Assembly (NCBI GenBank): GCA_041640595.1
Contig: JBEPZY010000004.1
Location: forward strand, 194,373 to 258,372
Direction: 5' to 3'
Length of the DNA stretch: 64,000 nt
Source of the DNA: Gemmatales bacterium
GTDB lineage: Bacteria > Planctomycetota > Planctomycetia > Gemmatales > HRBIN36
The notes below the pieces were generated by a model, which was not told the DNA's origin, did no database searches, and saw only the letters and a program-made list of their open reading frames with translations. Shown piece by piece: positions 5,008 to 56,162 of this stretch (position 1 is its first letter; each line of letters starts with the position of its first letter). The position numbers and the translations under genes are program-made.

Positions 5008-5214
5008 CGGACAACGGCTGACGAATAGTCCCATTTTTTCAACCTCGGGCACCGCACGCCCACATCGTTGCCGCGTTCAGGACCGAACAGCACGACCTTT
5101 TTCTCCGCTTAGATGCTCATGCGACGCGCTGCGAAGTACCTGTTCAGCACCGAGCAGCACAACCTTTTTGTCCGCCTCTGGCTGACCGCACGCTCACATC
5201 GGCGCAGTGTTCAG
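5008..5214. repeat. Degenerate repeat-spacer array, period 67 nt, at the left edge of the toxin island
   Basis: GTTCAG starts at 5075, 5142 and 5209; 5075-5110 vs 5142-5177 match at 31/36 nt; a decayed copy lies near 5008-5043. Confidence 0.7.
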
Positions 5215-11791: not shown

Positions 11792-12574
11792 TTATTCTCC
11801 TTTCCTAATAAGCTTCTCTAAACGCCAATCCTTCGAGTTCTTGCCAGAGGTAGAAAGTTCAATGACGTAGGGGCCGCACCCTGCAACAAGCGTCCATTTT
11901 TCGTCCTTGAAGTGCAGCGCGACGATTCTGATGTCCTTTGTGAGCAATTGCCTAGCGGCCTCACGACCTAGAGCTTCTGTCAATTTTTCCTTTAAAGGTA
12001 CCTGATGGTCAGGGATAGTAGTAAAGTTTTTCCATTCGGATAACCTATAGTGTACGCCCAGCTTGTCGTACGAGGCTGGTCGAGGTGGCAGGGGATCCAT
12101 GTGCGACTGATTAAGGTTAATGCTATAAAACGCTAAACAGGGTTTTTCTTCTCCTGGCAATGCGAAAACAAGCTCAAACAACCCTTCGTTAGACAGGCTA
12201 GCTTGAAACCCATAAGGGGCCTTCTTTGGTTCTGTGAAGTCTCTATCGCCAAACCTGGCTGTCCAATTAACTGACCGCACTCTGCTTTTGGAGTCCCGCA
12301 ACTGATCTAGTATTTCGACGTATAGCCTGATCCAGACATCTTTATAAGAGACGTTCGGGGGCGCCCCAAAGTCGTGCTCGACACGAATTTTCTCCCAGCC
12401 AACTTCGGCCACTTGATGCGCAGCTATGCGCACGCTCAAGACCTTGTGTGGGCCATCCTGATTGGCTTGCGTTGACACGGCATTATTCGAAGTGAGCAGC
12501 AGGACAGTTCCAAATAAGGACAAATATGCCTTTATTGGGTTCATGGAATTCACCCTCACGTTAGTGGAAATCAT
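11792..12574 (-). CDS. Secreted protein, candidate immunity protein for the upstream transglutaminase-like toxin
   Basis: 260-aa ORF with a signal-peptide-like N-terminus (start may be 12544), immediately downstream of the toxin end. Confidence 0.7.
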   Translation of the reverse strand: MISTNVRVNSMNPIKAYLSLFGTVLLLTSNNAVSTQANQDGPHKVLSVRIAAHQVAEVGWEKIRVEHDFGAPPNVSYKDVWIRLYVEILDQLRDSKSRVRSVNWTARFGDRDFTEPKKAPYGFQASLSNEGLFELVFALPGEEKPCLAFYSINLNQSHMDPLPPRPASYDKLGVHYRLSEWKNFTTIPDHQVPLKEKLTEALGREAARQLLTKDIRIVALHFKDEKWTLVAGCGPYVIELSTSGKNSKDWRLEKLIRKGE

Positions 12575-12610: not shown

Positions 12611-14786
12611 TTAGCCTACCTGCACGAAGACGATCTCTAAAATGGTCGGGTCATTTTTCTTAGCCCGCAATCCCGCTGGGAAAACGTATACGAAACCATC
12701 CAGAGCAGCGTTCTCCCACTCATTTTTCCGTGCTGTATGGTCCTCCGCCATAAGAAGGATCATAATAGGCATCTGCAACCCGCACGACGAAATGATTTGC
12801 AAAAGCGGAAGGTGGATCGGGATTGCCTTGTCCCGGTACCCCCGCTTTTGGCTTAACTTCGGAGACCGTCGGGTCATCCAAATCTATTATATATGTGTAG
12901 GGACTAGTCGCTGGAGAACCGCCTGCGCCGTTGAATTCCCAGTTCTTGACCAGCATACCTGTTCGCCACGGTAGGGCATATAGTCCGGTGACTGGGTCTA
13001 TGGGTTGGTCAGCACTAAATACCATGAATTTTCTAGCCCCCTGAACGCTTATGGCCCCGTAAGTATCTATCAGCAACTCGGCCCAGGAGCCGCACTGGCC
13101 GTTTGCGTGGGCTAAAAGTTGCTGTGTGTTGACCGCAGTGGCCCTGCCGCCAGCCCAGTACCTCAATTGAGTGTCATCCACACGACGGACTTCCCGATCA
13201 GTGAAATCACTCCAAATTGCTGAGATAACATCTGATTCGTTTGTTTTGCCGTCAGCGTTCTTCGAGCCCAGATGCACCAGGGTATGGTATAAGTTTACCC
13301 CTGGTTTGAGGGCAGGGTCGGCAAAAGTAAGGTACAAAGGATTTGGCGTCGACCCCGCCTTCGTCCAGGTTGAGTTGGCGCGCTGGCTGTCGGAGGTGGC
13401 TTGCCAGTCCAGCCTGAAGAGATTTGCACCAACGTAAGCTTGCACCACATTCGGAAATGCCACCGGCGACTCCGTTACGTCAAGCACGAGTTCAGTCGGG
13501 TTCGTCGGGTCGACGCGCACAGCCTTCGGCCCTACGTGAATCTGGAATCCCGTCGCAGGGTCCGCCGGCCCCGTCGCCATCACATAAATCGGGCCGCCAC
13601 CCCACGCAGTATCTAAGACGAACCGGGCACTCACTTTCAACGTTGTACCCCGGGTGTAAGCGTATGGCCAGCTATGCTCATCCGCATCCTCCGCATCCCC
13701 GTCTAAGTTTTTGTCCAACCAGTGTTCCGAACTATAGGCCACGTCGGGAGCTATTACTCCAGTCGGGTCCAGCTCCGGGTCCCGGTACACGGTATGCCCG
13801 CCGCTGAACGTTACCGACCGGATACCAAGGATTTTAGCCGTGTGAACAACGACCGTTTGCGTCGCCTCGGCAACCCCATCACTAACGGTGTACGTGAACG
13901 AGTCGTCCCCAGTGTGTGGAGCATCTGGCCGCTCGACTGCATAATAAACAAAATCACCGTTGGGATTCATCACCAGCTGAGCACCGGATGGTAGTCGCAT
14001 CAACTGCCGCGGTGGCTGATCGTTAATCTTGACCACGCGTAAGCTATCGCCATCGGCGTCAGTATCGTTCGCCAGGACGTTTCCCCGAACGGCACTCCCC
14101 GCCAGGACGTAATACTCGTCATTTACAGCCTCCGGAGCAGTGTTATGAACAGCAATCCAAGCCACAGCCATTTGTCGGAACTAGAGAATTCATTTGCCAA
14201 CCAGAGAGGAGCAGTGTTATGAACAGTGTCCAAGCCATAGCCACTGGGATTGTTAACAGTGAGTTTATTATACTGGTAGTGGAGCAGTGTTATGAACGGT
14301 GATCCAAGCCATAGCCAGGCCTAAAGCTATACCATCCGTAAACCCAAATACAAAAGCATCGGTGCCAGTATAACCAGCCGCCGGTGTATATCTAAACCTG
14401 CCATCATCATTCAATACCACCGTGCCATTCGTCGGAGCGGAGATTAGTTGCGCCGAGAAAACGCTGGGGCTTGAAAGCATTGGCACGGTGATAGCGTCGC
14501 CGTCCGGATCGTAGCCGCAGAGCTGGCCGACCAACTCGCGGTCGTGCAATACACTGAAACTCTGCATGGCGCCCAGCTGGGCAGACCTCCACCTATAGTA
14601 GCCGGTCGGTTTGTGATCATCCAATACGCTGAAGCTGGCATCGTAGGCATACGGCGCGTTGTTATAAACATCTATCACGACAGTGGCCGTGTTGCCGGTG
14701 GTCAGCCCATCCGACCAGGTGTAGGTGAAACTATCCGTACCGACGTAGTGCGTGTTCGGTGTATACGTGAAGCTGCCGTCGGGAAG
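12611..14786 (-). pseudogene. Orphan cassette: Big_9 stalk repeats plus transglutaminase/papain-like Cys-His-Asp toxin domain
   Basis: ORFs 14268-14678 and 12720-14171 are in the same frame; motifs GQCGSWA, FANHFVV and YYDPSYG; one extra A near 12723-12727 truncates the C-terminus (EWENAALDG continues in ORF 12611-12877); no start or signal peptide. Confidence 0.75.
14134..14317. repeat. CRISPR-like mini-array inside a coding sequence: three 36-37-nt repeats and two unique 37-nt spacers
   Basis: Repeats at 14134-14170, 14208-14243 and 14281-14317 (GGAGCAGTGTTATGAAC...CCAAGCCAYAGCCA); spacers at 14171-14207 and 14244-14280. Confidence 0.9.
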
Positions 14787-14832
14787 GGCACTTGGCTGTG
14801 AGCAAACAGCAGCTGCCCATCTTACGGGCAGC

Positions 14833-15828
14833 CTACGGAGTTTTCGGAGCTAAGTCGCCACTCGGTTTCAGAAGGTTTTCTACCAAAGGTTTGATCGCTG
14901 GATGGTTTTCTTTCTCCATTAGCTTCAGGAGTTCTGGAGTCATGTATAACTTCGGATGCTTTCGCACCTGTTCTACCAAATATCGCCTCACATACCACTG
15001 CGGACACGAATCCCATAGTCGTTGAAGGTCTTGCGCAACTCTCTTTTTGAGCACCTCAACATCTTTCTGCAAAGCTAAGCATCGATCCTCTGGCAGGTAC
15101 TTTCGCAACTCGGCCTCACTTCTCACCCAGGTCTGCTTAAGCTCTAAATTACGGACCTCGGAAGACACATACCCAAACAGCACCCTATGTCCTGGCGGTA
15201 CTTCTTCGTCTAGCCAAGAACTATAAACTTCGAAGAATAGTTGGACGGCCTGTACGGGCTTTTCCTCGAAAAGTCGGTCCAGGAATTCTTTCGGAGGCAA
15301 TTTTCCCTGACGCAAGTATGAGGCCAGCCATGTTTCTATCCCAGCAGGTCTAGATGGATATGGTCCAAAAGACTTATCAGGCAGGAATTCAAGTACATAT
15401 TCTAATGCGGACCTGCGGAGCTTGTCATCGTCGGAAGATTCTATCAGAGGCAATAATGCTCCTGTAAACCGGTCTCCCGCAACTTGGGTGACAATTGTGA
15501 TTAGCTTGTAAATTGCCATAAACTCGGGATGCGGCTGGTCGTCGGACGTCTGCTCGCCCAAGAACAGCAACTCTTTTAACAGTTCTTTAGCTGCTGCTGT
15601 CTGAGCAGCATCCGGCACAGGTTTCTGGAACAGCAGCAGCGCCTCATGGGCAACTAACCAGTGTTCCTTATCCGTTTTTGCCCTTTTTGCTTGGTGGATG
15701 ATCTGCCGCATCTTTTCGGCCGCTTGATGCTCTGCATTAGCCTCCTGAGCATCTGCGTTTAGTGTCACCAGCACTTGCAGCAGCACGAGCACTCGTGCGA
15801 AATTATTGACGACTCTGAGCATAGCCAA
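14833..15828 (-). CDS. Secreted helical candidate immunity protein (paralogue 3)
   Basis: Signal peptide; shares YLxxGxLPP, WYVRRYL and TPELxKLMxxExHPAIKPLVE with 16310-17263 and 17757-18743. Confidence 0.8.
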   Translation of the reverse strand: MAMLRVVNNFARVLVLLQVLVTLNADAQEANAEHQAAEKMRQIIHQAKRAKTDKEHWLVAHEALLLFQKPVPDAAQTAAAKELLKELLFLGEQTSDDQPHPEFMAIYKLITIVTQVAGDRFTGALLPLIESSDDDKLRRSALEYVLEFLPDKSFGPYPSRPAGIETWLASYLRQGKLPPKEFLDRLFEEKPVQAVQLFFEVYSSWLDEEVPPGHRVLFGYVSSEVRNLELKQTWVRSEAELRKYLPEDRCLALQKDVEVLKKRVAQDLQRLWDSCPQWYVRRYLVEQVRKHPKLYMTPELLKLMEKENHPAIKPLVENLLKPSGDLAPKTP

Positions 15829-18762: not shown

Positions 18763-21504
18763 TCATTTCCAGCCTTGCTCTGCTAAGCGCTGTCGAATAG
18801 TGTCGTGTACGGGTGGGTGGTCGTCAATGTTGTTATGAGTCACTCCGCTATCCTTTACCTCAATGTTTATGGTGCTGTTATCGTCAGGAGACAATTTATT
18901 GGTGGGAAGACCAATACTAACTCGGTCTGGACTGTTTTGCTGGTAAAGATTCACATGTATCTTGCTTGCGGGTCTTTGTCGTAGGGGAATAAATATTGGT
19001 TTCCTTAGCAGATCCATGGACCAGGCATCAACATATGCCGTGAAGCTTACCCCGATTTTGTTTTCGTCGAGCTGTTGCTCTTTAATCCACTTGGAGATAT
19101 TCGTTGTGAATTCTAATACGCTGCTCCCGCCTACACAATAACCCAGCGCCGCTAACTTTTGTACACCGCGTTTCTCGACCCCTACCTTCGCCTCAGCCGA
19201 GGCTGCTCTCTCGTCGCTATGCTTAAAGAGATATACGTCATAGCCACTTTTGTAAAGTTCATAACCAAGCTGGTACATTCCATCGCCTTTCCCGATCGGC
19301 CACGCTGGTTTGTCGTAAGCAAAACCGCCGAAAACAAATACCATGCCTTGCAAACCGAAGAATTCAATGCTATAAGTACTGACCACGTTGCCACCAACCA
19401 GGGCCTCGAAGGTCAAGACCGTCTTGTTTCCCCCAGCCGCCTGGTCAGGTGGTCGCATCCATTCCACCCATATCGTCATCTTGCCGGAATCCGCCCCTAC
19501 CGGAAAACCTACAACGTTCTCTAACAGCGCACCGGCAAACCCTCCTCCCGGAGCTACTATCGGGCCAAGCACCGCAGTAGCTGCAGGGGTTTTGTCAGGG
19601 CCGTACAGCCAGACACGTATATTATCATTATCCACCCGTAGCCGATAAGTAACCACCCCGGCAGGTGGTGGCTGGCGGTTTTGGTCGCCAAACTTGAAAT
19701 CGAGTACTACCTTAACCAGGTCATTCTCATTAGCCACGTTATTATCCCAGCGGTCATGAATACCATCGTTATCGTCATCGTCATTATTCCACCGCACCCC
19801 GACACGGACCTTGCCATCCTGCTCGGGCTGCACCTGGGTTTCCTCGAATATATTATGCTTTGGCCGGTAACCTGTCATGTACACGACTGGCCCTCCCGCA
19901 GGGGGTTCAGCCACCATCTGGTCGCGCACTAATTCGACCCTCTTTATTTCGCTGGCAGTAATGCCATCGCGCACGCGGTAGTAAAACCAATCTCGATTTT
20001 GCCCCGACGAATCAGGGTTGGGAGTATAGACAACATACCGGCCCCAGCTTTCTAGCTGCCCCTGATAAGGCCCAGCGACAATTTCCACCTGCAGCGGATC
20101 ACCGTCCGGATCGTAAGCCCCTTCGCATCCACAACCAGGGTCATCGCAAATCAACGACAGCGTAACTGGCATCTGATCGGGTACATGTATGGTCATATCG
20201 CGGGCAACCGGCGGCGTGTTAGTTATATAGATGCGAATGGTCGCCGCGAGGCTTTCCGCCACACCATCACTTACCGTGTAAGTGAACGAATCACCGCCCA
20301 CTGTTCGACTATGCGGTGTATAGACAAACTCACCATTGTTCAAAATAAGCACACGGGCTCCCGAAGGCAGACTCACCTCCTCTCCCACCTCGACAACACT
20401 GTCATTGATTCGGGCTATCCAGAAATTATCCCCGTCCGGGTCGTAAGCGGCTACTTGCTGGCGAAGTTCGCGATCATGCAGCACCGAATAATCCGCCTCC
20501 ATCGCGTATGGCCCATTATTATACACCTCAATCCTGACCGTGGCGGGCTCACTCGCCGCTATGCCATCCGACCAGGTATAGGTGAAGCTATCCGGGCCGA
20601 CATAATGCGTGTTCGGGTTGTAGGTGAAAGTGCCGTCGGGATTGAGTGTTAGTGTGCCGTTGGTTGGGCCAGAGACTAGTTGCGCGGTGATTGGGTCGCC
20701 ATCGGGATCGTAGCCGTAGAGCTCGCCGACTAACTCGCGGTCGTGCAATACGCTGAAGCTGGCGTCGTAGGCATACGGGGTGTTGTTATAAACATCTATC
20801 ACGACAGTGGCCGCGTTCCCAGAGGTTAGGCCATCCGACCAGGTGTAGGTGAAGCTATCCGGGCCAACATAGTGCGTGTTCGGCGTATAGGTGAAGGTGC
20901 CGTCAGGATGGAACGTTAGTGAACCGTTAGTGGGGCCGGAGACGAGTTGCGCGGTGATAGCGTCGCCGTCGGGATCGTAGCCGTAGAGCTGGCCGACCAA
21001 CTCGCGGTCGTGCAATACGCTGAAGCTGGCGTCGTAGGCATACGGGGCGTTGTTATACACATCTATCGTGACAGAGGCCGTGCTGCCGGTGGTCAAGCCA
21101 TCAGACCATGTATAGGTGAAACTGTCGGAACCGACGTAGTTCTCATTAGGTGTATAGGTGAAAGTGCCGTCGGGATTGAGTGTTAGTGTGCCGTTGGTGG
21201 GGCCGGAGACCAGCTGCGCTGTAATCGCATCGCCATCGGGATCGTAGCCGTACACGCAGCCGGTCAGTTCGCGGTCGTGCAGCACGCCGAAGCTATCACT
21301 GCATGCGTAATTGAGCAATGCATCATGCTTGCCCAACCTGATCTCGTCGAGTGCAAAGTCTATTTTGCGTTTGTGGGACGCTTTCAGAAACCGAAAGGTA
21401 ACCTGGCCGGGTGCTACATAGGGACGCCGTTCGTCTATACCTAGAACGAGTTGACCAAACATTACTAACCGAGATTGCATGAACAGTTTTCGCATTGCTG
21501 TCAT
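18763..21504 (-). CDS. Big_9/cadherin-like tandem-repeat protein with a C-terminal alpha/beta-hydrolase domain, probably an N-truncated cassette
   Basis: About 5 YDPDGD Ig-like repeats, the first three near-identical with a 267-nt period (20741, 21008, 21275); Asp-rich NNDDDDNDG motif; LGYCVGG, AYVDA and THNNID; stalk homology starts abruptly near 21297. Confidence 0.85.
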   Translation of the reverse strand: MTAMRKLFMQSRLVMFGQLVLGIDERRPYVAPGQVTFRFLKASHKRKIDFALDEIRLGKHDALLNYACSDSFGVLHDRELTGCVYGYDPDGDAITAQLVSGPTNGTLTLNPDGTFTYTPNENYVGSDSFTYTWSDGLTTGSTASVTIDVYNNAPYAYDASFSVLHDRELVGQLYGYDPDGDAITAQLVSGPTNGSLTFHPDGTFTYTPNTHYVGPDSFTYTWSDGLTSGNAATVVIDVYNNTPYAYDASFSVLHDRELVGELYGYDPDGDPITAQLVSGPTNGTLTLNPDGTFTYNPNTHYVGPDSFTYTWSDGIAASEPATVRIEVYNNGPYAMEADYSVLHDRELRQQVAAYDPDGDNFWIARINDSVVEVGEEVSLPSGARVLILNNGEFVYTPHSRTVGGDSFTYTVSDGVAESLAATIRIYITNTPPVARDMTIHVPDQMPVTLSLICDDPGCGCEGAYDPDGDPLQVEIVAGPYQGQLESWGRYVVYTPNPDSSGQNRDWFYYRVRDGITASEIKRVELVRDQMVAEPPAGGPVVYMTGYRPKHNIFEETQVQPEQDGKVRVGVRWNNDDDDNDGIHDRWDNNVANENDLVKVVLDFKFGDQNRQPPPAGVVTYRLRVDNDNIRVWLYGPDKTPAATAVLGPIVAPGGGFAGALLENVVGFPVGADSGKMTIWVEWMRPPDQAAGGNKTVLTFEALVGGNVVSTYSIEFFGLQGMVFVFGGFAYDKPAWPIGKGDGMYQLGYELYKSGYDVYLFKHSDERAASAEAKVGVEKRGVQKLAALGYCVGGSSVLEFTTNISKWIKEQQLDENKIGVSFTAYVDAWSMDLLRKPIFIPLRQRPASKIHVNLYQQNSPDRVSIGLPTNKLSPDDNSTINIEVKDSGVTHNNIDDHPPVHDTIRQRLAEQGWK

Positions 21505-22021: not shown

Positions 22022-23779
22022 TTATTGATTTTCCAAGTACGAATGGCCATACAGCCAATACTTCCACCCACTCGGGGTTGCCAAGAAGACAAGACGAAAC
22101 TCGTGTACCCGACTTTTGAGAGTCACTAGACAAACGTCCGGATTATAGTGCGTAATGGCTTCCATAGTCGCAGAGCTAAGGTTGCTAATAGCGGAGCGAA
22201 AGGTTCGCACCTCAGGGTACGAATCTACTCCGAAAATACTCAGGCGGGACAAGGTCACCTTGTCGTCAGCAATCACTGCATCGGCAAACTCCGCTAGAGT
22301 CGTGACCAAATCTACCATGCCCTGCCAGCGACCCTGCGATGTGCGTTGCCAGTGATCCTTCGGCAAACCTTGGGGTAGACGCGGGCCAGCCGGGCCCACT
22401 GGACGGTTGTACACTAAGTGGCACGGAGTGCTAAGTAGCGATACGGACGTAACTTGCGGTTGGCTGTTATTTTGGCAGTAACGCTCTATATCGCTTGATA
22501 ACGCCGTTTGGTGCTGCGCTTTTTGCTGCGCCTGGATTTTTGCGCTCGGAATTGTCGCAATTGCATTGTCTTGCTCGGCAGCTGCGGGTATTGCCGTCGG
22601 TTGGCGTTGCAGGGTAGCGGTTCCGGTTGGCAGTTGCTCGGCCGTACCAGGCTGCCCGCTGACGCCTGCCGCTTTCCGGAAGTGTTCGTCCGTTACGGAA
22701 CGGTAAAACTGGTCGGCAATCGCTTGGCTATGGCCCAGCCAGGCCGCGCAAGTATGCGAGGGGAAAATATCGGCCAGCTCGGTCGCCCGTGTAGCTCGCA
22801 TGTTCTGAAACGGTTTCGGCCAGGGTTGAACGCCTGCCAGTAGGCAGTAGCGGTTCAGTTGGGTTCGCAGGTTGGCATCCGGCTTGTAGCGAGTAATCAC
22901 TTGGTCGGGTGCGCCTTCCGGCAGTTGGTGCCATAGTTCCTCTAAGTATGGCCGTACCTCGGCAAAAATGGGAATAATCCGGACGCCTTGGTCGGGATGG
23001 TGTGCGGTTTTTGGCGAACGGATAATCATCCGATGATTGGCCCAGTCTATATCCGACCAGCGTAGTGTGGCGATTTCCGACGGAATGCGTAATCCTGCCC
23101 AGCGTGCCAGCGCCACAATCAGCCGAAACTGGGGGCAGGGAATTACGTCCAAAACTTTCCTAACTTCGTCCGCAGGAATCAATTTCCGACGGCCAGGATC
23201 GCCTTGGACGGTCAGTCCCTTGATATGCTCAAAAGGATTGCTGGCAATGTAACCGCGTCGGCAGGCTGCGCGGAAAAACTCCTTGATTAGCCGCGTCCAT
23301 TTATTCGCCGTTGCTTTGGCTCGGCCTCGGAGTAATTCAGCCCGAATACGGTCGGCATCCGCTGGGCTAATTCGGTCTAGCGGTGTATTCGGGTCAACCG
23401 AACGGAGTAACCAACGGGCAGCTTGCCGCAAAATGATATGTGTGGACGGCTTGACCTCGGCAGCCCGCAATTGTAAGTGCTCGGCAATAAACTCGCCCAG
23501 AGTCGGTGTCCGTTGACGCTGGCGCGGTTCCGCTAAGTCCCAGGCTTCCAATTTCCTGTAGATGCGTTCCGGCAGGCTGTCCAGCCATTTTGCAGTTGCT
23601 AATGGCAAAGGCGTTGCCGTAGTTTTGGCCGCAACCAGTTCGCGCACGTGTAGGGCGATATGCTCGGCAGTCTTACGGTCTCTGACGCCAGGCAACCGCA
23701 ACGCTCGCCGGATGCCGTGATGATCGAAAAAGTCAATCCGGTAGATGCCGCTTTTTGGGTCTTTCAATATACTGGCCAT
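22022..23779 (-). CDS. Tyrosine recombinase/integrase; the ORF reads through the att site into host sequence below ~22390
   Basis: GLRIPSE (R), SPKT (K), FQNMR, WLGHS and QFY catalytic pattern; GGAGGA RBS. Confidence 0.9.
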   Translation of the reverse strand: MASILKDPKSGIYRIDFFDHHGIRRALRLPGVRDRKTAEHIALHVRELVAAKTTATPLPLATAKWLDSLPERIYRKLEAWDLAEPRQRQRTPTLGEFIAEHLQLRAAEVKPSTHIILRQAARWLLRSVDPNTPLDRISPADADRIRAELLRGRAKATANKWTRLIKEFFRAACRRGYIASNPFEHIKGLTVQGDPGRRKLIPADEVRKVLDVIPCPQFRLIVALARWAGLRIPSEIATLRWSDIDWANHRMIIRSPKTAHHPDQGVRIIPIFAEVRPYLEELWHQLPEGAPDQVITRYKPDANLRTQLNRYCLLAGVQPWPKPFQNMRATRATELADIFPSHTCAAWLGHSQAIADQFYRSVTDEHFRKAAGVSGQPGTAEQLPTGTATLQRQPTAIPAAAEQDNAIATIPSAKIQAQQKAQHQTALSSDIERYCQNNSQPQVTSVSLLSTPCHLVYNRPVGPAGPRLPQGLPKDHWQRTSQGRWQGMVDLVTTLAEFADAVIADDKVTLSRLSIFGVDSYPEVRTFRSAISNLSSATMEAITHYNPDVCLVTLKSRVHEFRLVFLATPSGWKYWLYGHSYLENQ

Positions 23780-43645: not shown

Positions 43646-43906
43646 AGGAACGCATAGCATTCCGAGCACAAGATAACTGGTTGCAGGAACGTAAAAACGA
43701 AATTGTGGGTGTAGCGTAACAGAGATGCATAGCATTGCAAGCACAAGATAACTGGCCGGAGGAACGTAAGAACGAAATTGCGGGTGTGGCGTAACAGGGA
43801 TGCATAGCGTTGCAAGCACAAGATAACTGGTTGCAGGAACGTAAGAACGAAATGGTGGGCGTGGCGTAACAAGGACGCATAGCATTCCGAGCGCAAAATA
43901 ACTCGT
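43646..43906. repeat. 75-nt tandem repeat, 3 units plus a terminal ~36-nt part-unit
   Basis: GCATAGC starts at 43652, 43727, 43802 and 43877. Confidence 0.9.
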
Positions 43907-43925: not shown

Positions 43926-44218
43926 GTTCCAATCCCACCGGCATGATGGCAGGTATCTTAGTTTGTGCGCAGGCTCCGGTCGCTGTACGGTGCGGAATGT
44001 TTCAATCCCACCGGCGTGATGGCAGGTCTGTTGGTTTGTGCGCAGACTCCGGTCGCTCTAGGGTGCGGAATGTTTCAATCCCACCGGCATGATGGCAGGT
44101 ATCTTAGTTTGTGCGCAGGCTCCGGTCGCTGTACGGTGCGGAATGTTTCAATCCCACCGGCATGACGGCAGGTATGCTAGTGATCGGGTTGAGCAGCCGT
44201 AACTCGCCAGCCTCGTAG
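43926..44218 (+). repeat. 73-nt-period array with a CRISPR-like 37-nt repeat (GTTTCAATCCC...); three near-identical spacers, then one unique 37-nt spacer
   Basis: Repeat starts at 43926, 43999, 44072 and 44145; unique segment 44182-44218. Confidence 0.85.
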
Positions 44219-44700
44219 GTTTCCATACCGACAGCACGTTCACCTATACACCGAACACGCACTATGTTGGCCCGGATAGCTTCACCTATACCTGGTCGGA
44301 TGGCCTGACTACCGGCAACACCGCCGCCGTCACTATAGATGTGTACAACAACGCGCCGTATGCCTACGATGCCAGCTTCAGCGTATTGGATGATCACGAA
44401 CCGACCGGCTACTATAGGTGGAGGTCTGCCCAGCTGGGCGCCATGCAGAGTTTCAGTGTATTGCACGACCGCGAGTTAGTCGGCCAGCTCCCTGTACGGC
44501 TATGATGCCGATGGCGATGCTATCACCGTGCCAATGCTTTCAAGCCCCGGCGTTTTCTCGGCGTAATCAGCCTCCGGCCCCACCAACGGGCCGGACCAAC
44601 GGTACACTAACACTCAATCCTGACGGCAGCCTTACCTATACATCGAACACGCACTATGTTGGAACGGATAGTTTCACCTATACCTGATTGGCTGGGTTGC
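44219..44700 (+). pseudogene. Isolated Big_9 stalk fragment, an inverted close copy of 14449-14786
   Basis: Same repeat DNA including the same 75-nt and 33-nt insertions; frameshifts and stops. Confidence 0.85.
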
Positions 44701-44886
44701 TAACAGGCGAAGCGGCTAAGATTCTGAATCGCCGCTGGTGGTGGTAAGTTTTTCGAGGTCGGGGGATGGGATTGAGCTTGCCGATTTTGGCGGGTGAGGT
44801 GGCTTAACAAATCCTGCGGGTGTGCATTGCGATACGTGAGGCGGGCAGACGGTTTGCTCCATGCCGACCAGCAGCGCATAATTGCC

Positions 44887-45212
44887 GCAGAGCGGGTGCT
44901 GGTCGGTTGGCATCACGCCGACACCGAACAACCTGGAATAGAGGAACCATAGCGCTGAGGCAGAGCGGGTGCTGGTCGGTTGGCATCACGCCGACACGGC
45001 AGAACCTGTAAGAGCCGAACCATAGTGCTGAGGCAGAACGGGTGCTGGTCGGTTGGCATGACGCCGACACCGAACAACCTGGAATAGAGGAACCATAGTG
45101 CTGAGTCAGAGCGGGTGCTGGTCGGTTGGCATCACGCCGACACGGCACAACCTGGAGGAGAGGAACCATAGTGCTGAGACAAAGCGGGTGCTGGTCGGTT
45201 GGCGTCAGGCCG
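44887..45212. repeat. 73-nt tandem repeat, 4 units plus a ~34-nt part-unit
   Basis: AGCGGGTGCTGGTCGGTTGGC-like units start at about 44887, 44960, 45033, 45106 and 45179. Confidence 0.9.
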
Positions 45213-51679: not shown

Positions 51680-52043
51680 GGACCTGGCTCCAGAACCGCT
51701 ATCTTCTCCGTCCGCATTATACCGGAAGCTGGCCGATTGCGAACGCCATCAGAGGCGGCACCATGAGTGCACGCGATAGTGGCACCGATACCCGGCATCC
51801 TGGCAGCGGGCGATCAGCTCTTCACCGTCCGACACGCCAGCGGCATCGATGCTCGGCATCCAAGATATGGTTGCCGGCCGAATGTTCGACGGCTCAGTCC
51901 AAACGACAACACCGGCTGGGCCGGCCATTCCAGCACTGGTGTCTGGCGGGATTCGGCCTAAAATAGTCCGAGCGAAAGTCGGTGCGGTTGTCGCTGCGCC
52001 GATGGATTCAGCCTGGACAGAAGCGAGTTCCAGGAGGTCGCCT

Positions 52044-55000
52044 GTGTCGCAAGAGCAACCTAAAGGTCTGGCCGCTGTCATTGACGTGTTGCGTGAAAAA
52101 TACGATTGGAAGCTCGACCAGGAAATCGGTCGTGGCGGGTTTGGCGTGGTGTTTCGCGAACAGGTGAACGGCATGATGCGGGCCGTCAAAATCACTCTCG
52201 ATCCGCTCGATCGGCTCACCGCAGGGCTTAGCGATGTCCAGCGTCAGCAAGCACTGCAACGGGAACGCGAAGCCCTGGAATTGCTCACGCGGATCGGCAA
52301 CCATCCCCATCTGTTGACACTCATCAGCTGGGAGGAAGTGTTGGGCCACCTGGTTACGGTTTGGGAATACGCGGCCGATGGCACGTTACTGGATCGGCTG
52401 CGGGAGCATCAGCGGCAAAACGGACAATGCGGATTGCCGCTGGATCAATTGATCCCGTGGATGGAACAGGCGGCGGAAGGCCTCGAGTTTCTCAACAGCC
52501 GGGGGATTTACCATCGCGACATCAAACCGCAAAATTTGTTTCTGGTCGGCGAGCAGGTGAAAGTCGGCGATCTGGGATTTTTGAAGCTGGCGGGGCTGAG
52601 CACGGCATCGCAGACGGGCGTGGGCACGGTTGGCTATCTGCCGCTGGAGGCGTACCCGCGGAGTGCGAACGAGAAGGGTCGGTTGCATGAAACGATTGAT
52701 GTGTACGGACTGGCGGCGACGTATGTCCATCTGCGCACGGGCAAGCCGCCTTTTGGCACGAGCGAGCTGATGATTATTGATCGCCAGAAACGTGGTCAGC
52801 CGTGCACCGATGGCATGACGCCGGCCGAAGCCGAGTGGGTGCGTCAAGCCTTGTCGCCCCGTCCGGACCAACGCCCCCGATCGGTCAGGGAATTCGTGCG
52901 AGAACTCGGCAATCGTTTGTCTGCCAGTGAGCTGAGCCAGCGCGTAAGCATCCGGGAGTTCGGTTTCTCGCCCTCGCCTATTGAGTTGCGTATCGCCAGG
53001 CCACGGCAAGTCGAGGGCAGTACGCTGCCACCATTGCCCAGAGAACTGGCGCAAGCGCAGGCGCAGCTGCTGGCCCTGCCGGAATTGATCCGCCAGGTGC
53101 AAGACGGGACGCACCCGGCGTTGCAGCGCCACTGGCAGGTCGTGCAGCAAGCCGAGCAACAACTGCAACAGTTAAAAGCAGCTTTGCAAGCGACACCGCT
53201 GCCAACCGGTCTATCCGTTGCCGATGCGCAAACCATATTCAAGACACTCCAACGGGACCCCGAAGCTTCTCTGGTAGGGTTGTATCGGCTGGCAGGCAAT
53301 GTCTCTCGATGGGCGTTTGCTCACTGGCTGAAGATGGCCAAGTCCTGCGTTCTGGCCCAGCGCCAGTATGAGCAACTCCGACAGCAGTACCTGAGTTACG
53401 CTCATGAACAGCTGCAGAGAATGCAGCAGCTGTTAGAGCGGCTCAAGGAAGAAGTAGGCCGGCTTCAATACCGGGACCTGGTACAGTTGCTTGCCGGGTA
53501 TCGTGCACGAATTGGCACTGGCAGCGAGACGCTTCCGGTGGAGTTGTGGATTCAGCTAGGCCCGGAATTAGAACGGCGCTACATCGGCTGGAACGCACAA
53601 ACGCTGCTCGAGCAAGCCGAATGGGCCTGGGGAGCAACGGTTCAGTTCCTGAAGCAACAGCGGCGCCGGAGGCGGCTGCGCCTTGTCCTTGGCCTGCTTA
53701 TACTCGTGCTGGCCTTCATCTTGGGAATCCTAGTGTATGCCTGGCCTCCTTCGTTGCAAGTATCCGCCACGCAACCTGACCAGCCCGTTGCTGGCGAACC
53801 GTGGGAGGTGGAATTCCGAACCTGGTCACTTTGGGGTCGGCCCGTGTCTGTCGAATGGCGCTATGCGGGCGAGACGCAGTGGCAACGGCTGGAGGAGCCG
53901 AAACTGCGCATCCCGGAGATTAAAGCCGACAGTCTAGCCCTGGAATTTCGCCCCGTGGACAGCAAAGGTTTTCTCGGTAACGCGATCCAACAACGAGTTT
54001 ACGTTCCCGTTCCGACGCTGAAAATCACGAAACAGGATCCGCCGAATGGCCCGATAGCGGGCGAGCCGTTTACCATTGAGTTCGAGGCGACTTCACCGGT
54101 GGGCCGGACCGTCCACGTCGAGTGGCGCTACGCTGGCGATACACAGTGGCGGCGACTGTCCGAGCAAAAGTTGCATATTGCGGAGGTCAAAGGCGACGCT
54201 CTGGCTCTCGAATTCCGCGCCGTGGACAGCAAGGACTTTATCGGTTCTGCTCTCGAAGGGCGCTGGCGGGTCTTGCCTCCTGCTCCGTCGCTGAAAATCA
54301 CCAAGCAGGATCCGCCGAATGGGCCGATAGCGGGCGACCCGTTCACCATTGAGTTCGAGGCGACTTCACCGGCGGGCCGGACCGTCCACGTCGAGTGGCG
54401 CTACGCTGGCGATACACAGTGGCAGCGACTGTCCGAGCAAAAGTTGCATATTCCGGAGGTCAAAGGCGAAACTCTGGCTCTCGAATTCCGCGCCGTGGAC
54501 AGCAAGGGCTTCGCCAGCACCGTGAGCCCGTACCTCTTGCTTGTATTCGCAGATAAGGACAGCTACGCGCGCCGCGAAGTGCGGCTCTTCACGGGGCACG
54601 AGAATCGGGTCTGGAGCGTCGCGGTGACGCCCGATGGCAAATACGTCGTTTCGGGAAGCGACGACAAAACGGTGCGTTTGTGGGACTTGGCGACGGGGAA
54701 AGAAGTGCGGCGGTTCACGGGGCACTGGCCTTCGGTCTATAGCGTTGCGGTGACGCCCAATGACAAATACGTCGTTTCGGGAAGCGGGGGCTACACGGTG
54801 CGGGTGTGGGAGCTGGCGACGGGGAAGGAAGTGCGGGAGCTCACGGCGCACGAGGGTTCGGTCAATAGCGTCGCGGTGACGCCCGATGGTAAATACGTCG
54901 TTTCGGGAAGCGGGGACAAAACGGTGCGTTTGTGGGACCTGGCGACGGGGAAAGAAGTGCGGCGGTTCACGGGGCACGGCGATTCGGTGAGGACCGTCGC

Positions 55001-55460
55001 GGTGACGCCCGATGGCAAATACGTCGTTTCGGGAAGCTGGGACAACACGGTGCGTTTGTGGGAGCTGGCGACGGGGCAAGAAGTGCGGCGGTTCACGGCG
55101 CACGAGGGTTGGGTCAGGAGCGTCGCGGTGACGCCCGATGGCCAATACGTCGTCTCGGGAGGCTATGACAACACGGTGCGTTTGTGGGAGCTGGCGACGG
55201 GGAAAGAAGTGCGGCGGTTCACGGGGCACCGGAGCGCGGTCTCGAGCGTCGCGGTGACCCCCGATGGCAAATACGTCGTTTCGGGAAGCGACGACAACAC
55301 GGTGCGTTTGTGGGACCTGGCGACGGGGAAAGAAGTGCGGCGGTTCACGGGGCACGGCGATTCGGTGAGGACCGTCGCGGTGACGCCCGATGGCAAATAC
55401 GTCGTTTCGGGAAGCGGGGACGAAACGGTGCGGGTGTGGTACATCGGCGACCTGAAGTGA
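52044..55460 (+). CDS. Receptor-like Ser/Thr kinase: kinase, helical linker, TM helix, 3 Ig-like repeats and 7 WD40 repeats
   Basis: IGRGGFG, HRDIKPQN and GDLG; TM helix after RRRRRLR; WD40 units of 126 nt from 54576; GTG at 52044 follows AGGAGG (ORF open from 51849). Confidence 0.92.
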   Translation: MSQEQPKGLAAVIDVLREKYDWKLDQEIGRGGFGVVFREQVNGMMRAVKITLDPLDRLTAGLSDVQRQQALQREREALELLTRIGNHPHLLTLISWEEVLGHLVTVWEYAADGTLLDRLREHQRQNGQCGLPLDQLIPWMEQAAEGLEFLNSRGIYHRDIKPQNLFLVGEQVKVGDLGFLKLAGLSTASQTGVGTVGYLPLEAYPRSANEKGRLHETIDVYGLAATYVHLRTGKPPFGTSELMIIDRQKRGQPCTDGMTPAEAEWVRQALSPRPDQRPRSVREFVRELGNRLSASELSQRVSIREFGFSPSPIELRIARPRQVEGSTLPPLPRELAQAQAQLLALPELIRQVQDGTHPALQRHWQVVQQAEQQLQQLKAALQATPLPTGLSVADAQTIFKTLQRDPEASLVGLYRLAGNVSRWAFAHWLKMAKSCVLAQRQYEQLRQQYLSYAHEQLQRMQQLLERLKEEVGRLQYRDLVQLLAGYRARIGTGSETLPVELWIQLGPELERRYIGWNAQTLLEQAEWAWGATVQFLKQQRRRRRLRLVLGLLILVLAFILGILVYAWPPSLQVSATQPDQPVAGEPWEVEFRTWSLWGRPVSVEWRYAGETQWQRLEEPKLRIPEIKADSLALEFRPVDSKGFLGNAIQQRVYVPVPTLKITKQDPPNGPIAGEPFTIEFEATSPVGRTVHVEWRYAGDTQWRRLSEQKLHIAEVKGDALALEFRAVDSKDFIGSALEGRWRVLPPAPSLKITKQDPPNGPIAGDPFTIEFEATSPAGRTVHVEWRYAGDTQWQRLSEQKLHIPEVKGETLALEFRAVDSKGFASTVSPYLLLVFADKDSYARREVRLFTGHENRVWSVAVTPDGKYVVSGSDDKTVRLWDLATGKEVRRFTGHWPSVYSVAVTPNDKYVVSGSGGYTVRVWELATGKEVRELTAHEGSVNSVAVTPDGKYVVSGSGDKTVRLWDLATGKEVRRFTGHGDSVRTVAVTPDGKYVVSGSWDNTVRLWELATGQEVRRFTAHEGWVRSVAVTPDGQYVVSGGYDNTVRLWELATGKEVRRFTGHRSAVSSVAVTPDGKYVVSGSDDNTVRLWDLATGKEVRRFTGHGDSVRTVAVTPDGKYVVSGSGDETVRVWYIGDLK

Positions 55461-55663
55461 GTGGCCAGCGGGGAACAAGGATGCCGAATGGGATGCGGGA
55501 TTGGGATGGGCGATTGGCGGCCAGGAATTGGCAACCGGGAACGTGGAGTTGGGACGGCGAAGTAGCTGGCACATCGCTGATGCGATGCGGTGCCATCTGC
55601 CGACCGACGAATCAAACGCGGCAGGTGTCAGCACGACCCGCTGCCCGCAGTAAACGCCGAGTC

Positions 55664-56162
55664 AAGAGCGGCGGGCGTCAGCCCGCCGTGGTTCTGTGAT
55701 ACGAACGTTGTGCAGCGAGAAACGCACTTCGTTCAGCGACTAGCGAACGGACGAACAAGAGCGGCGGGCGTCAGCCCGCCGTGGTTCTGTGATACGAACG
55801 TTGTGCAGCGAGAAGCGCACTTCGTTCAGCGACTAGCGAACGGACGAACAAGAGCGGCGGGCGTCAGCCCGCCGTGGTTCTGGTCGGGCGAACGTTGTCG
55901 GTAATGTGTTGGAAATGCACGTGCACTAGCGTGTGCGAAACCACGGGGGGCTTACGCCCCCCGCTCTTGGATTGCAGTGCGCATGTCTGCCGGTGAAAAG
56001 CGATTTTTGCGATGCGTAAACGCACGCCTGTAGAGCGGTGGGCGTCAGCCCGCCGTGGTTTGGATTCGCACTTGCGACGGCGACCGGCTTTTGCGGAGTG
56101 ATTATGTTTCGGCCCGCACATTCGCCTCCCCTACCACGGCTGGCTCACGCCAGCCGCTCCTG
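55664..56162. repeat. Cluster of REP-like palindromes, partly in 93-nt tandem units
   Basis: GAGCGGCGGGCGTCAGCCCGCCGTGG at 55666, 55759 and 55852, plus inverted variants. Confidence 0.85.

Follow-up and report, generated by a model that had tools for sequence, protein, structure and literature searches.

How did three nearly identical repeats and two AT-rich inserts come to lie inside a gene cassette at 14134-14317 of the window, the whole 64,000-nt stretch of DNA analysed here? A sequence-only reading had proposed two successive spacer integrations at one ectopic site, each duplicating its 37-nt target. We judge, with a probability of about 0.85, that two successive off-target Cas1-Cas2 spacer integrations into ordinary DNA would account for the locus. 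The block is built as follows:

14134-14170, minus strand: R1, 37 nt, the gene-distal repeat (a copy of the 37-bp target), whose minus strand reads AVAWIAVHNTAP
14171-14207, no strand assigned: S1, a 37-nt insert read as the older spacer, with a single occurrence in the genome
14208-14243, minus strand: R2, the middle repeat, 36 nt (one base missing)
14244-14280, no strand assigned: S2, a 37-nt insert read as the younger spacer, with a single occurrence in the genome
14281-14317, minus strand: R3, 37 nt, the gene-proximal repeat, which reads AMAWITVHNTAP in the gene's frame

A repeat finder and direct reading of 13900-14560 both returned these three repeats. R1 and R3 are 33/37 identical, the same value that had been read from the letters, and R2 equals R3 except for one substitution and one missing base. 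The flanking bases differ at all repeats (C, A and T before, and T, C and G after, R1, R2 and R3, respectively). Hence, the repeat borders are exact, and the pattern of 37-, 36- and 37-nt repeats around two 37-nt inserts is borne out. Within the 64-kb window, there are three copies of the repeat's first 17 nt where 0.09 would be expected, and none of 100 shuffles reached this number. As had been claimed, the inserts have no relation to each other and are AT-rich, with a GC content of 41% for S1 and 35% for S2 compared to 57.6% for the genome. Each is found only once in the 4.45-Mb assembly, and their similarity to the rest of the genome never extends beyond 14-16 nt. The repeat finder returned no inverted repeats in 13500-15000. 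We rejected a MITE or IS insertion with target-site duplication since there are no terminal inverted repeats and since S1 and S2 are single-copy and mutually unrelated.

Read on the minus strand, the repeats consist of stalk-gene codons, AMAWITVHNTAP in R3 and AVAWIAVHNTAP in R1. Pfam coordinates put the repeat at the border between two Big_9 domains, in agreement with its earlier description as the gene's own codons between two Ig domains. The distance from the start of R1 to the start of R3 is 147 nt (49 codons). Hence, ORFs 14268-14678 and 12720-14171 share one frame. The last minus-strand base of S1 makes the ATG of ORF 12720-14171, and the stop codons that end ORF 14268-14678 come from S2.

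Searching for an uninterrupted homologue, we found one in the same genome, one in metagenome DNA and one in a congeneric genome. By BLAST against the organism's own genome, contig C3 carries a paralogue in which C3:615405-616482 is 95.5% identical to window 13081-14170 and C3:616446-616726 is 94.0% identical to window 14281-14561, and these two alignments overlap on exactly one 37-nt copy (C3:616446-616482), to which R1 is 36/37 identical. Three-way MAFFT alignment gave a clean 147-nt gap both in the C3 paralogue and in L015, a C3-type copy on a metagenome contig. In the congeneric genome G003 (locus L011), the junction is likewise unbroken, with 61% amino acid identity across 242 aa. The uninterrupted paralogue junction reads ...GLAMAWIAVHNTAPEAVNDEYY..., and the prediction that removal of 147 nt rejoins the ORFs in frame thus has a natural counterpart. 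Since there is one repeat copy and no insert in C3, L015 and G003, the 37-bp target duplication was made twice. The pre-insertion site is a single 37-bp stretch at the Big_9/Big_9 border. Judged from these alignments, the ancestral state is one repeat copy, and the present state is three copies around two apparently foreign inserts. An in-frame stop lies upstream in the C3 paralogue. Among 40 relatives searched at the DNA level, none had a close orthologue of the locus; the best matches had 71-78% identity and lie in two of the three same-genus genomes searched.

Which enzyme could have left this geometry? Two copies each of cas1 and cas2 are present in the genome, and the cas2 copy on contig C1 is placed as follows:

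C1:356211-356405: cas2, adjoining the RT, cas1 and a 247-repeat array

The C1 RT (550 aa, of the group II intron kind) is located between cas2 and cas1 (342 aa). The array directly beside cas2-RT-cas1 has 247 repeats of 37 nt, and its 246 spacers are most often 37 nt (n = 99), followed by 36 nt (n = 81) and 38 nt (n = 38). Contig C8 carries a type I-B set (cas1b, cas2, cas4, cas3, cas5 and cas7) and a type III-B cmr1-6 set, which sit by arrays with a 30-nt repeat. The geometry of the locus (37-bp duplication and 37-nt insert) is that of the C1 array: the duplication length equals the resident repeat length of 37 bp in both events, and the insert length is the modal class of C1 spacers. In sequence, the locus repeat and the C1 37-nt repeat agree at 10/37 positions in one orientation and at 6/37 in the other, compared to a random mean of 10.7. 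With a single in-frame copy in the paralogue, the repeat is not the bona fide CRISPR repeat that the sequence-only reading had named as its possible undoing. We therefore rejected a bona fide CRISPR array, as the repeat is not common to a cas-linked array and consists of the gene's own codons.

The type I-B Cas1-Cas2-Cas4 of C8, instead of the RT-linked module, would be the other resident candidate for off-target integration. Its spacers are often 37 nt (108/341) and it left many off-array scars (87 pairs, described below), but these scars duplicate about 30 bp whereas both events here duplicate exactly 37 bp, which makes this integrase a very unlikely source.

With the four canonical arrays set apart, we scanned the genome without gaps for isolated direct-repeat pairs at all periods of 45-120. 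A sharp peak at periods 65-68 (repeat length 25-33 nt) had 13, 41, 23 and 10 pairs (total 87), and a second peak at periods 72-75 (repeat length 33-41 nt) had 15, 28, 26 and 19 pairs (total 88, part of which are protein repeats, e.g. the 72-nt units at C4:319323-319875). Neighbouring periods had 0-5 pairs each. The 65-68 class has the geometry of the type I-B array (30-nt repeat plus 35-38-nt spacer), and the period spectra mirror the way spacer lengths are distributed in the I-B and C1 arrays. The two classes have modal duplications of 30 nt and 37 nt, and the repeat sequence is different at every pair site. The ungapped scan missed 14134-14317 because R2 has a 1-nt deletion. A third peak, at period 87-93, was set aside: its members are copies of a palindromic REP-like element, the same in sequence throughout, and do not represent scars.

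The scar sites are depleted from long open frames, as frames of at least 250 codons span 21% of the sites in the 65-68 class (n = 87) and 36% of those in the 72-75 class (n = 88) compared to 80% of 3000 random positions. In the 30-nt class, one of the 87 inserts matches a C8 array spacer (31 nt, 96.8%) and three match the 9.6-kb contig C15, which is also matched by 33 canonical type I-B spacers. In the 37-nt class, a tie to a canonical spacer or to C15 was found for 0/88 inserts. Three of 83 loci in the 30-nt class were extended more than once, as was C2:183877 in the 37-nt class.

With regard to target choice, an EM motif run with free orientation gave a weak signal (sum IC of 3.56 versus 2.71 at random sites), and position-wise comparison to the canonical repeats gave a mild enrichment at the repeat ends only. 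The target at 14134-14317 is without this repeat-end enrichment, without resemblance to the 37-nt repeat and without a detectable motif, and we saw no leader-like similarity at the locus.

These observations are consistent with the following course of events. The integrase would attack the two strands at staggered points 37 bp apart, a 37-nt prespacer would be joined between the attack points, and gap filling would duplicate the 37 bp to yield R-S1-R. A second integration, at the gene-proximal repeat, would then yield R3-S2-R2-S1-R1 on the coding strand. The enzyme would most likely be the C1 cas2-RT-cas1 module, whose adjoining array combines a 37-nt repeat with spacers that are most often 37 nt. 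Since the target is unlike the CRISPR repeat, the 37-bp ruler appears to be set by protein. The stop codons of S2 would have split the cassette, and substitutions along with the 1-nt deletion would reflect later drift. The repeats differ at 1 to 4 positions; hence, the events are old, and there is no sequence tie to the present cas genes.

The order of the two events may be read from the repeats. With the C3 copy as reference, R1 differs at one position, and two adjacent derived bases, absent from both R1 and the reference, are common to R2 and R3; R3 carries one further change and R2 is one base short. The simplest history would be that S1 was inserted first, two substitutions then arose in the gene-proximal repeat, and S2 was then inserted into that repeat, with the caveat that the codon varies among paralogues (IAV, IVV, ITV) and that gene conversion could mimic the shared-base pattern.

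If the inserts came stepwise, are the intermediate forms present in the wild? We decoded predicted proteins of metagenome contigs against the window's three reading frames and examined 41, which report on proteins only and not on DNA. Ten of the 41 run from the gene through AMAWITVHNTAP and an S1-coded peptide into R1 without S2; nine of these were recognised by script (P0026, P0028, P0029, P0033, P0035, P0041, P0057, P0058 and P0060) and P0059 by eye. Four terminate in the S2-coded 'LPV' (P0024, P0025, P0052 and P0053), and P0040 runs through both S2 and S1. The junction is uninterrupted in two (P0051 and P0054), as it also is in P0002 and P0004 from outside the 41, and P0027 has no insert but is frameshifted. 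The other 23 stop short of the site, and an S2-only form is not recognisable from such proteins. P0003 begins with MAVAWIAVHNTAP, as the window's downstream ORF does, and has a different C-terminal domain; the contig encoding it is absent from the 14 other family genomes searched.

The zero-insert, S1-only and two-insert protein forms fit stepwise growth. Along with the empty sites, the match to the C1 array and the genome-wide excess of similar pairs, the S1-only proteins uphold the original proposal of two successive integrations, each duplicating 37 nt. The two S1 variants (…EFSSS… and …ELSGS…) each occur with and without S2, and the 1-nt deletion of the window's R2 is also present in P0026 and P0041, right after the gene. 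Hence, the combined pattern of S1 variant, S2 and deletion needs recombination, repeated S2 loss or recurrent mutation. Removal of a unit through recombination between the repeats, and hence reversal of the knock-out, would be plausible, and this pattern supports it indirectly.

Corresponding DNA came from X1, X2 and X5, three DNA runs that belong to three hot-spring and mat studies. The contigs of X1 and X5 cover 14135-14331 and those of X2 cover 14083-14431, in each case as the two-insert form with no difference. In an RNA library (X4), the array is covered in two pieces, and in one contig an additional A after 14228 brings R2 to 37 nt. Joints that skip 73, 74 or 147 nt were absent from the contigs of the four runs, which drop rare variants and so indicate presence only, being silent on rare alleles. 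A metagenome scan with the left flank-repeat junction pattern returned solely the C3-like empty site L015. Forms with 0, 1 and 2 inserts, for which a check of reads had been advised, are thus represented among the metagenome proteins, and the contigs of the four runs gave the two-insert form or parts of it.

Might the block serve as a programmed on/off switch for the cassette, being removed or restored by recombination between its repeats? That the 147 nt are whole codons speaks for this idea, as do the 0-, 1- and 2-insert forms in metagenomes and the occurrence of all four combinations of S2 presence and S1 variant. However, the cassette lacks both a 5' end and its own start, the one-insert forms are still out of frame or stopped, the contigs of four runs have no 73-, 74- or 147-nt skip, and the C3 paralogue is also broken by a stop. 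We consider such a switch barely credible.

The same origin could also have given rise to a young array that now works, i.e. one that is co-transcribed with the cassette and cut to guide RNAs for the III-B or I-B effectors. The locus has three repeats and two different spacers, contigs from the X4 RNA library cover the block (coverage itself not being proof of transcription), and repeat extension is seen elsewhere in the genome, at the multiply extended loci given above. However, neither the hairpin of the canonical 37-nt repeat nor its 3'-terminal ATTGAAAC is present in the locus repeat, which folds with about the same energy as shuffled sequences; the repeats are decaying in several lineages by the 1-nt deletion and substitutions, and no leader-like similarity was seen. 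Hence, the locus is probably not a working array, and we hold this possibility to be quite remote. A fuller account would be the birth of an array in the wild, seeded by the RT-linked Cas1-Cas2 with its protein-set 37-bp ruler, in which the new repeats became a preferred target and took up a second spacer, the array was transcribed with the cassette into usable guide RNAs, and 0-, 1- and 2-spacer forms co-exist with recombination losses in hot-spring populations; as a whole, this account is improbable.

We also looked for the source of the inserts. Comparing S1-R2-S2 to phages and plasmids by blastn with E up to 10 gave no match, and exact-match scans of S1 and S2 against IMG/VR and genome_contigs gave none either, although a diverged source would escape such scans. 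The IMG/VR check that accompanied the original proposal, made by exact match only, therefore returned nothing. No source for S1 or S2 was found within the organism's own genome.

This last result bears on a different origin, in which the inserts are leftovers of cassette-swap junctions, of illegitimate recombination or of tandem duplication in the stalk family. The locus does belong to recombining cassettes with common stalks and different tips, but S1 and S2 match no stalk gene or other genome site beyond the short stretches noted above, so the match to stalk genes that had been foreseen as evidence against spacers was not found. Moreover, the inserts are not copies of the adjoining gene sequence, as tandem duplication would have made them, and recombination leaves the 37/37 geometry unexplained, both twice at this locus and at tens of unrelated sites. 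An origin without CRISPR enzymes is hence highly unlikely, and off-target Cas1-Cas2 integration stays the preferred reading.

What did the insertions interrupt? The cassette and its full-length relative are as follows:

14268-14849, minus strand: upstream cassette piece, whose frame opens inside a Big_9 domain, with no N-terminus
12720-14171, minus strand: downstream cassette piece, with one Big_9 domain, a beta-sandwich and a transglutaminase-like Cys-His-Asp domain
18763-21504, minus strand: full-length stalk gene, 913 aa, with five Big_9 domains

The first possible start in the upstream piece is the GTG at 14678. The cassette has 88% nucleotide identity to the stalk of gene 18763-21504, and homology to this full-length gene starts abruptly near 14787. 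The two have the stalk sequence in common, and the C-terminal region of gene 18763-21504 is unrelated; among the C-terminal regions of the window's three stalk genes, we found no significant similarity. The cassette tip has no Pfam family, even at an E of 1, and no PDB sequence match, and a protein atlas gave unnamed clusters and weak transglutaminase leads only. In a 22-sequence alignment, Cys251, His351 and Asp362 are nearly invariant, and Transglut_core of Pfam is weakly touched by two of the 22 members. The tip model (pLDDT 87.1) has a beta-sandwich and a transglutaminase-like core, and is closest to transglutaminases 2 and 3 and factor XIII (Foldseek E of 2e-6, with low TM scores of 0.26-0.34). 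The downstream ORF 11792-12574 has no family match.

Polymorphic toxin systems such as Rhs and CdiA have orphan C-terminal cassettes. In common with these, the copy here is 5'-truncated, has the same upstream sequence as a nearby full-length gene and ends in a different C-terminal domain. Unlike in Rhs and CdiA, the stalk is Big_9/cadherin-like and the tip transglutaminase-like. Hence, the name 'toxin cassette' given earlier would be a fair likeness, as it holds for the resemblance to orphan cassettes with a variable transglutaminase-like tip on a shared stalk but does not go beyond resemblance. By its sequence, the cassette is an orphan, 5'-truncated copy with a putative transglutaminase-like tip. 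The earlier term 'knock-out' likewise stands in part: the S2 stops split the cassette, but the cassette was already 5'-truncated and without its own start. An insertion into a cassette that had no 5' part to begin with was probably neutral, and that the hit copy was already silent fits the insertion's survival.

How does the locus relate to known cases? Nivala, Shipman and Church reportedly described non-canonical spacer integration giving 'neo-CRISPR' loci in Nat Microbiol in 2018. The locus has the testable features of a neo-CRISPR scar, apart from a known protospacer. In the parts of the sources considered here, neo-CRISPR integration is described for the E. coli type I-E system with overproduced Cas1-Cas2 (as cited in PMC7054753, bioRxiv 10.1101/148544), and the natural evidence, from two other species, is called circumstantial (bioRxiv 10.1101/148544). 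As far as those accounts extend, the present locus has in common with the E. coli loci a spacer-sized insert flanked by duplicated local non-CRISPR sequence of the length of the system's repeat and a site able to accept further spacers. Unlike the E. coli loci so described, it is natural, lies inside a coding cassette and has a 37-bp duplication that fits an RT-linked cas1-cas2, and wild DNA has retained both the empty site and the one-insert form (the latter as seen through proteins).

Ectopic spacer acquisition inside arrays is described, in the portions of the papers that we drew on, for Streptococcus thermophilus and S. mutans (PMC5338259, PMC7999890, PMC8265633). Going by these portions, integration away from the leader-proximal repeat is common to both; however, the Streptococcus events took place at true repeats of a true array, whereas the target here is ordinary gene sequence. 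The limited collection of literature that we searched gave no natural genome-wide cases of off-target integration. The process is already known, and the locus is an unusually well-documented natural case of it.

So far, most knowledge of off-target spacer integration comes from E. coli overproducing the integrase. The locus offers a clean natural case, with an empty site in both a paralogue and a relative, an exact duplication, two ordered steps, and one- and two-insert forms that are both found in environmental DNA. The C3 empty site provides a concrete substrate for studying integrase rulers and the idea that arrays may arise from ordinary DNA. Together with the approximately 170 similar pairs in the genome, the case suggests that the cut spacing of the integrase can be set without a CRISPR repeat, that the RT-linked adaptation module also integrates off-target, and that CRISPR adaptation carries an insertional cost that is pruned from genes by selection.

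Besides the main 37+37 scar (a 37-bp target duplication around a 37-nt insert, ascribed to off-target Cas1-Cas2 integration), we found that the window holds other candidate off-array spacer scars, that is, spacer-sized inserts outside the canonical arrays:

2516-2617, isolated repeat pair, candidate scar
5075-5175, isolated repeat pair, candidate scar
32402, 38996, 42034 and 47478, weaker repeat-pair signals, candidate scars

Among these pairs, the periods of 66 and 67 agree with the geometry of the resident type I-B arrays, and one pair has a period of 74. Elsewhere in this genome, an off-array locus on contig C8 (39396-39840) carries six 37-nt repeats with two spacers in alternation, and has the appearance of a two-spacer scar duplicated afterwards as a 147/148-nt unit.

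Three tandem arrays in the window have the same period as the 37+37 scars:

43652-43903, tandem array, period 75 nt, 3.4 copies
43926-44175, tandem array, period 73 nt, 3.4 copies
44887-45212, tandem array, period 73 nt, 4.5 copies

The repetition in all three covers the entire unit, and hence they are not CRISPR-like. Genome-wide, enrichment at periods of 72-75 and 66-67 was found for whole-unit tandem repeats as well, and in the array at 43926 most units open with the same 15 nt as the type I-B CRISPR repeat, with a 1-base difference in the first unit. Whole-unit arrays of this kind may be scars that were amplified via unequal recombination between the scar repeats.

Other repeats are also present in the window. 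A REP-like palindromic element (…AAGAGCGGCGGGCGTCAGCCCGCCGTGG…) occurs in tandem at 87-93-nt spacing at 55663-55882 and genome-wide, with approximately 139 pairs at this spacing in the genome. The 1203-aa ORF at 51849-55460 contains a 126-nt tandem repeat (6.9 copies), which corresponds to 42-residue units that are likely of the WD40 type, and a 273-nt repeat lies upstream.

We found a third, broken fragment of the Big_9-domain stalk gene at 44222-44708 (+), with 88% identity to 14425-14782; it has stop codons and also includes a second Big_9 piece, which has diverged. The GC content of positions 6000-31000 is 49-53% vs 57-62% elsewhere, and this region is possibly an acquired island. It includes three stalk genes, the tips of which are unrelated, as well as the following gene:

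22022-23779, tyrosine-recombinase-family gene

Of the canonical type I-B spacers, 33 match contig C15 (9585 nt) of the same assembly, as do 1 spacer from the 37-nt array and 3 of the off-array inserts; this contig is probably a virus or plasmid that was binned together with the genome.

The adaptation module on contig C1 (356211-359617) has the gene order cas2, reverse transcriptase (group II intron kind, 550 aa) and cas1, and adjoins the 247-repeat array with no effector genes adjacent. This arrangement raises the question of whether RNA can serve as a source of its spacers, including the off-array ones.
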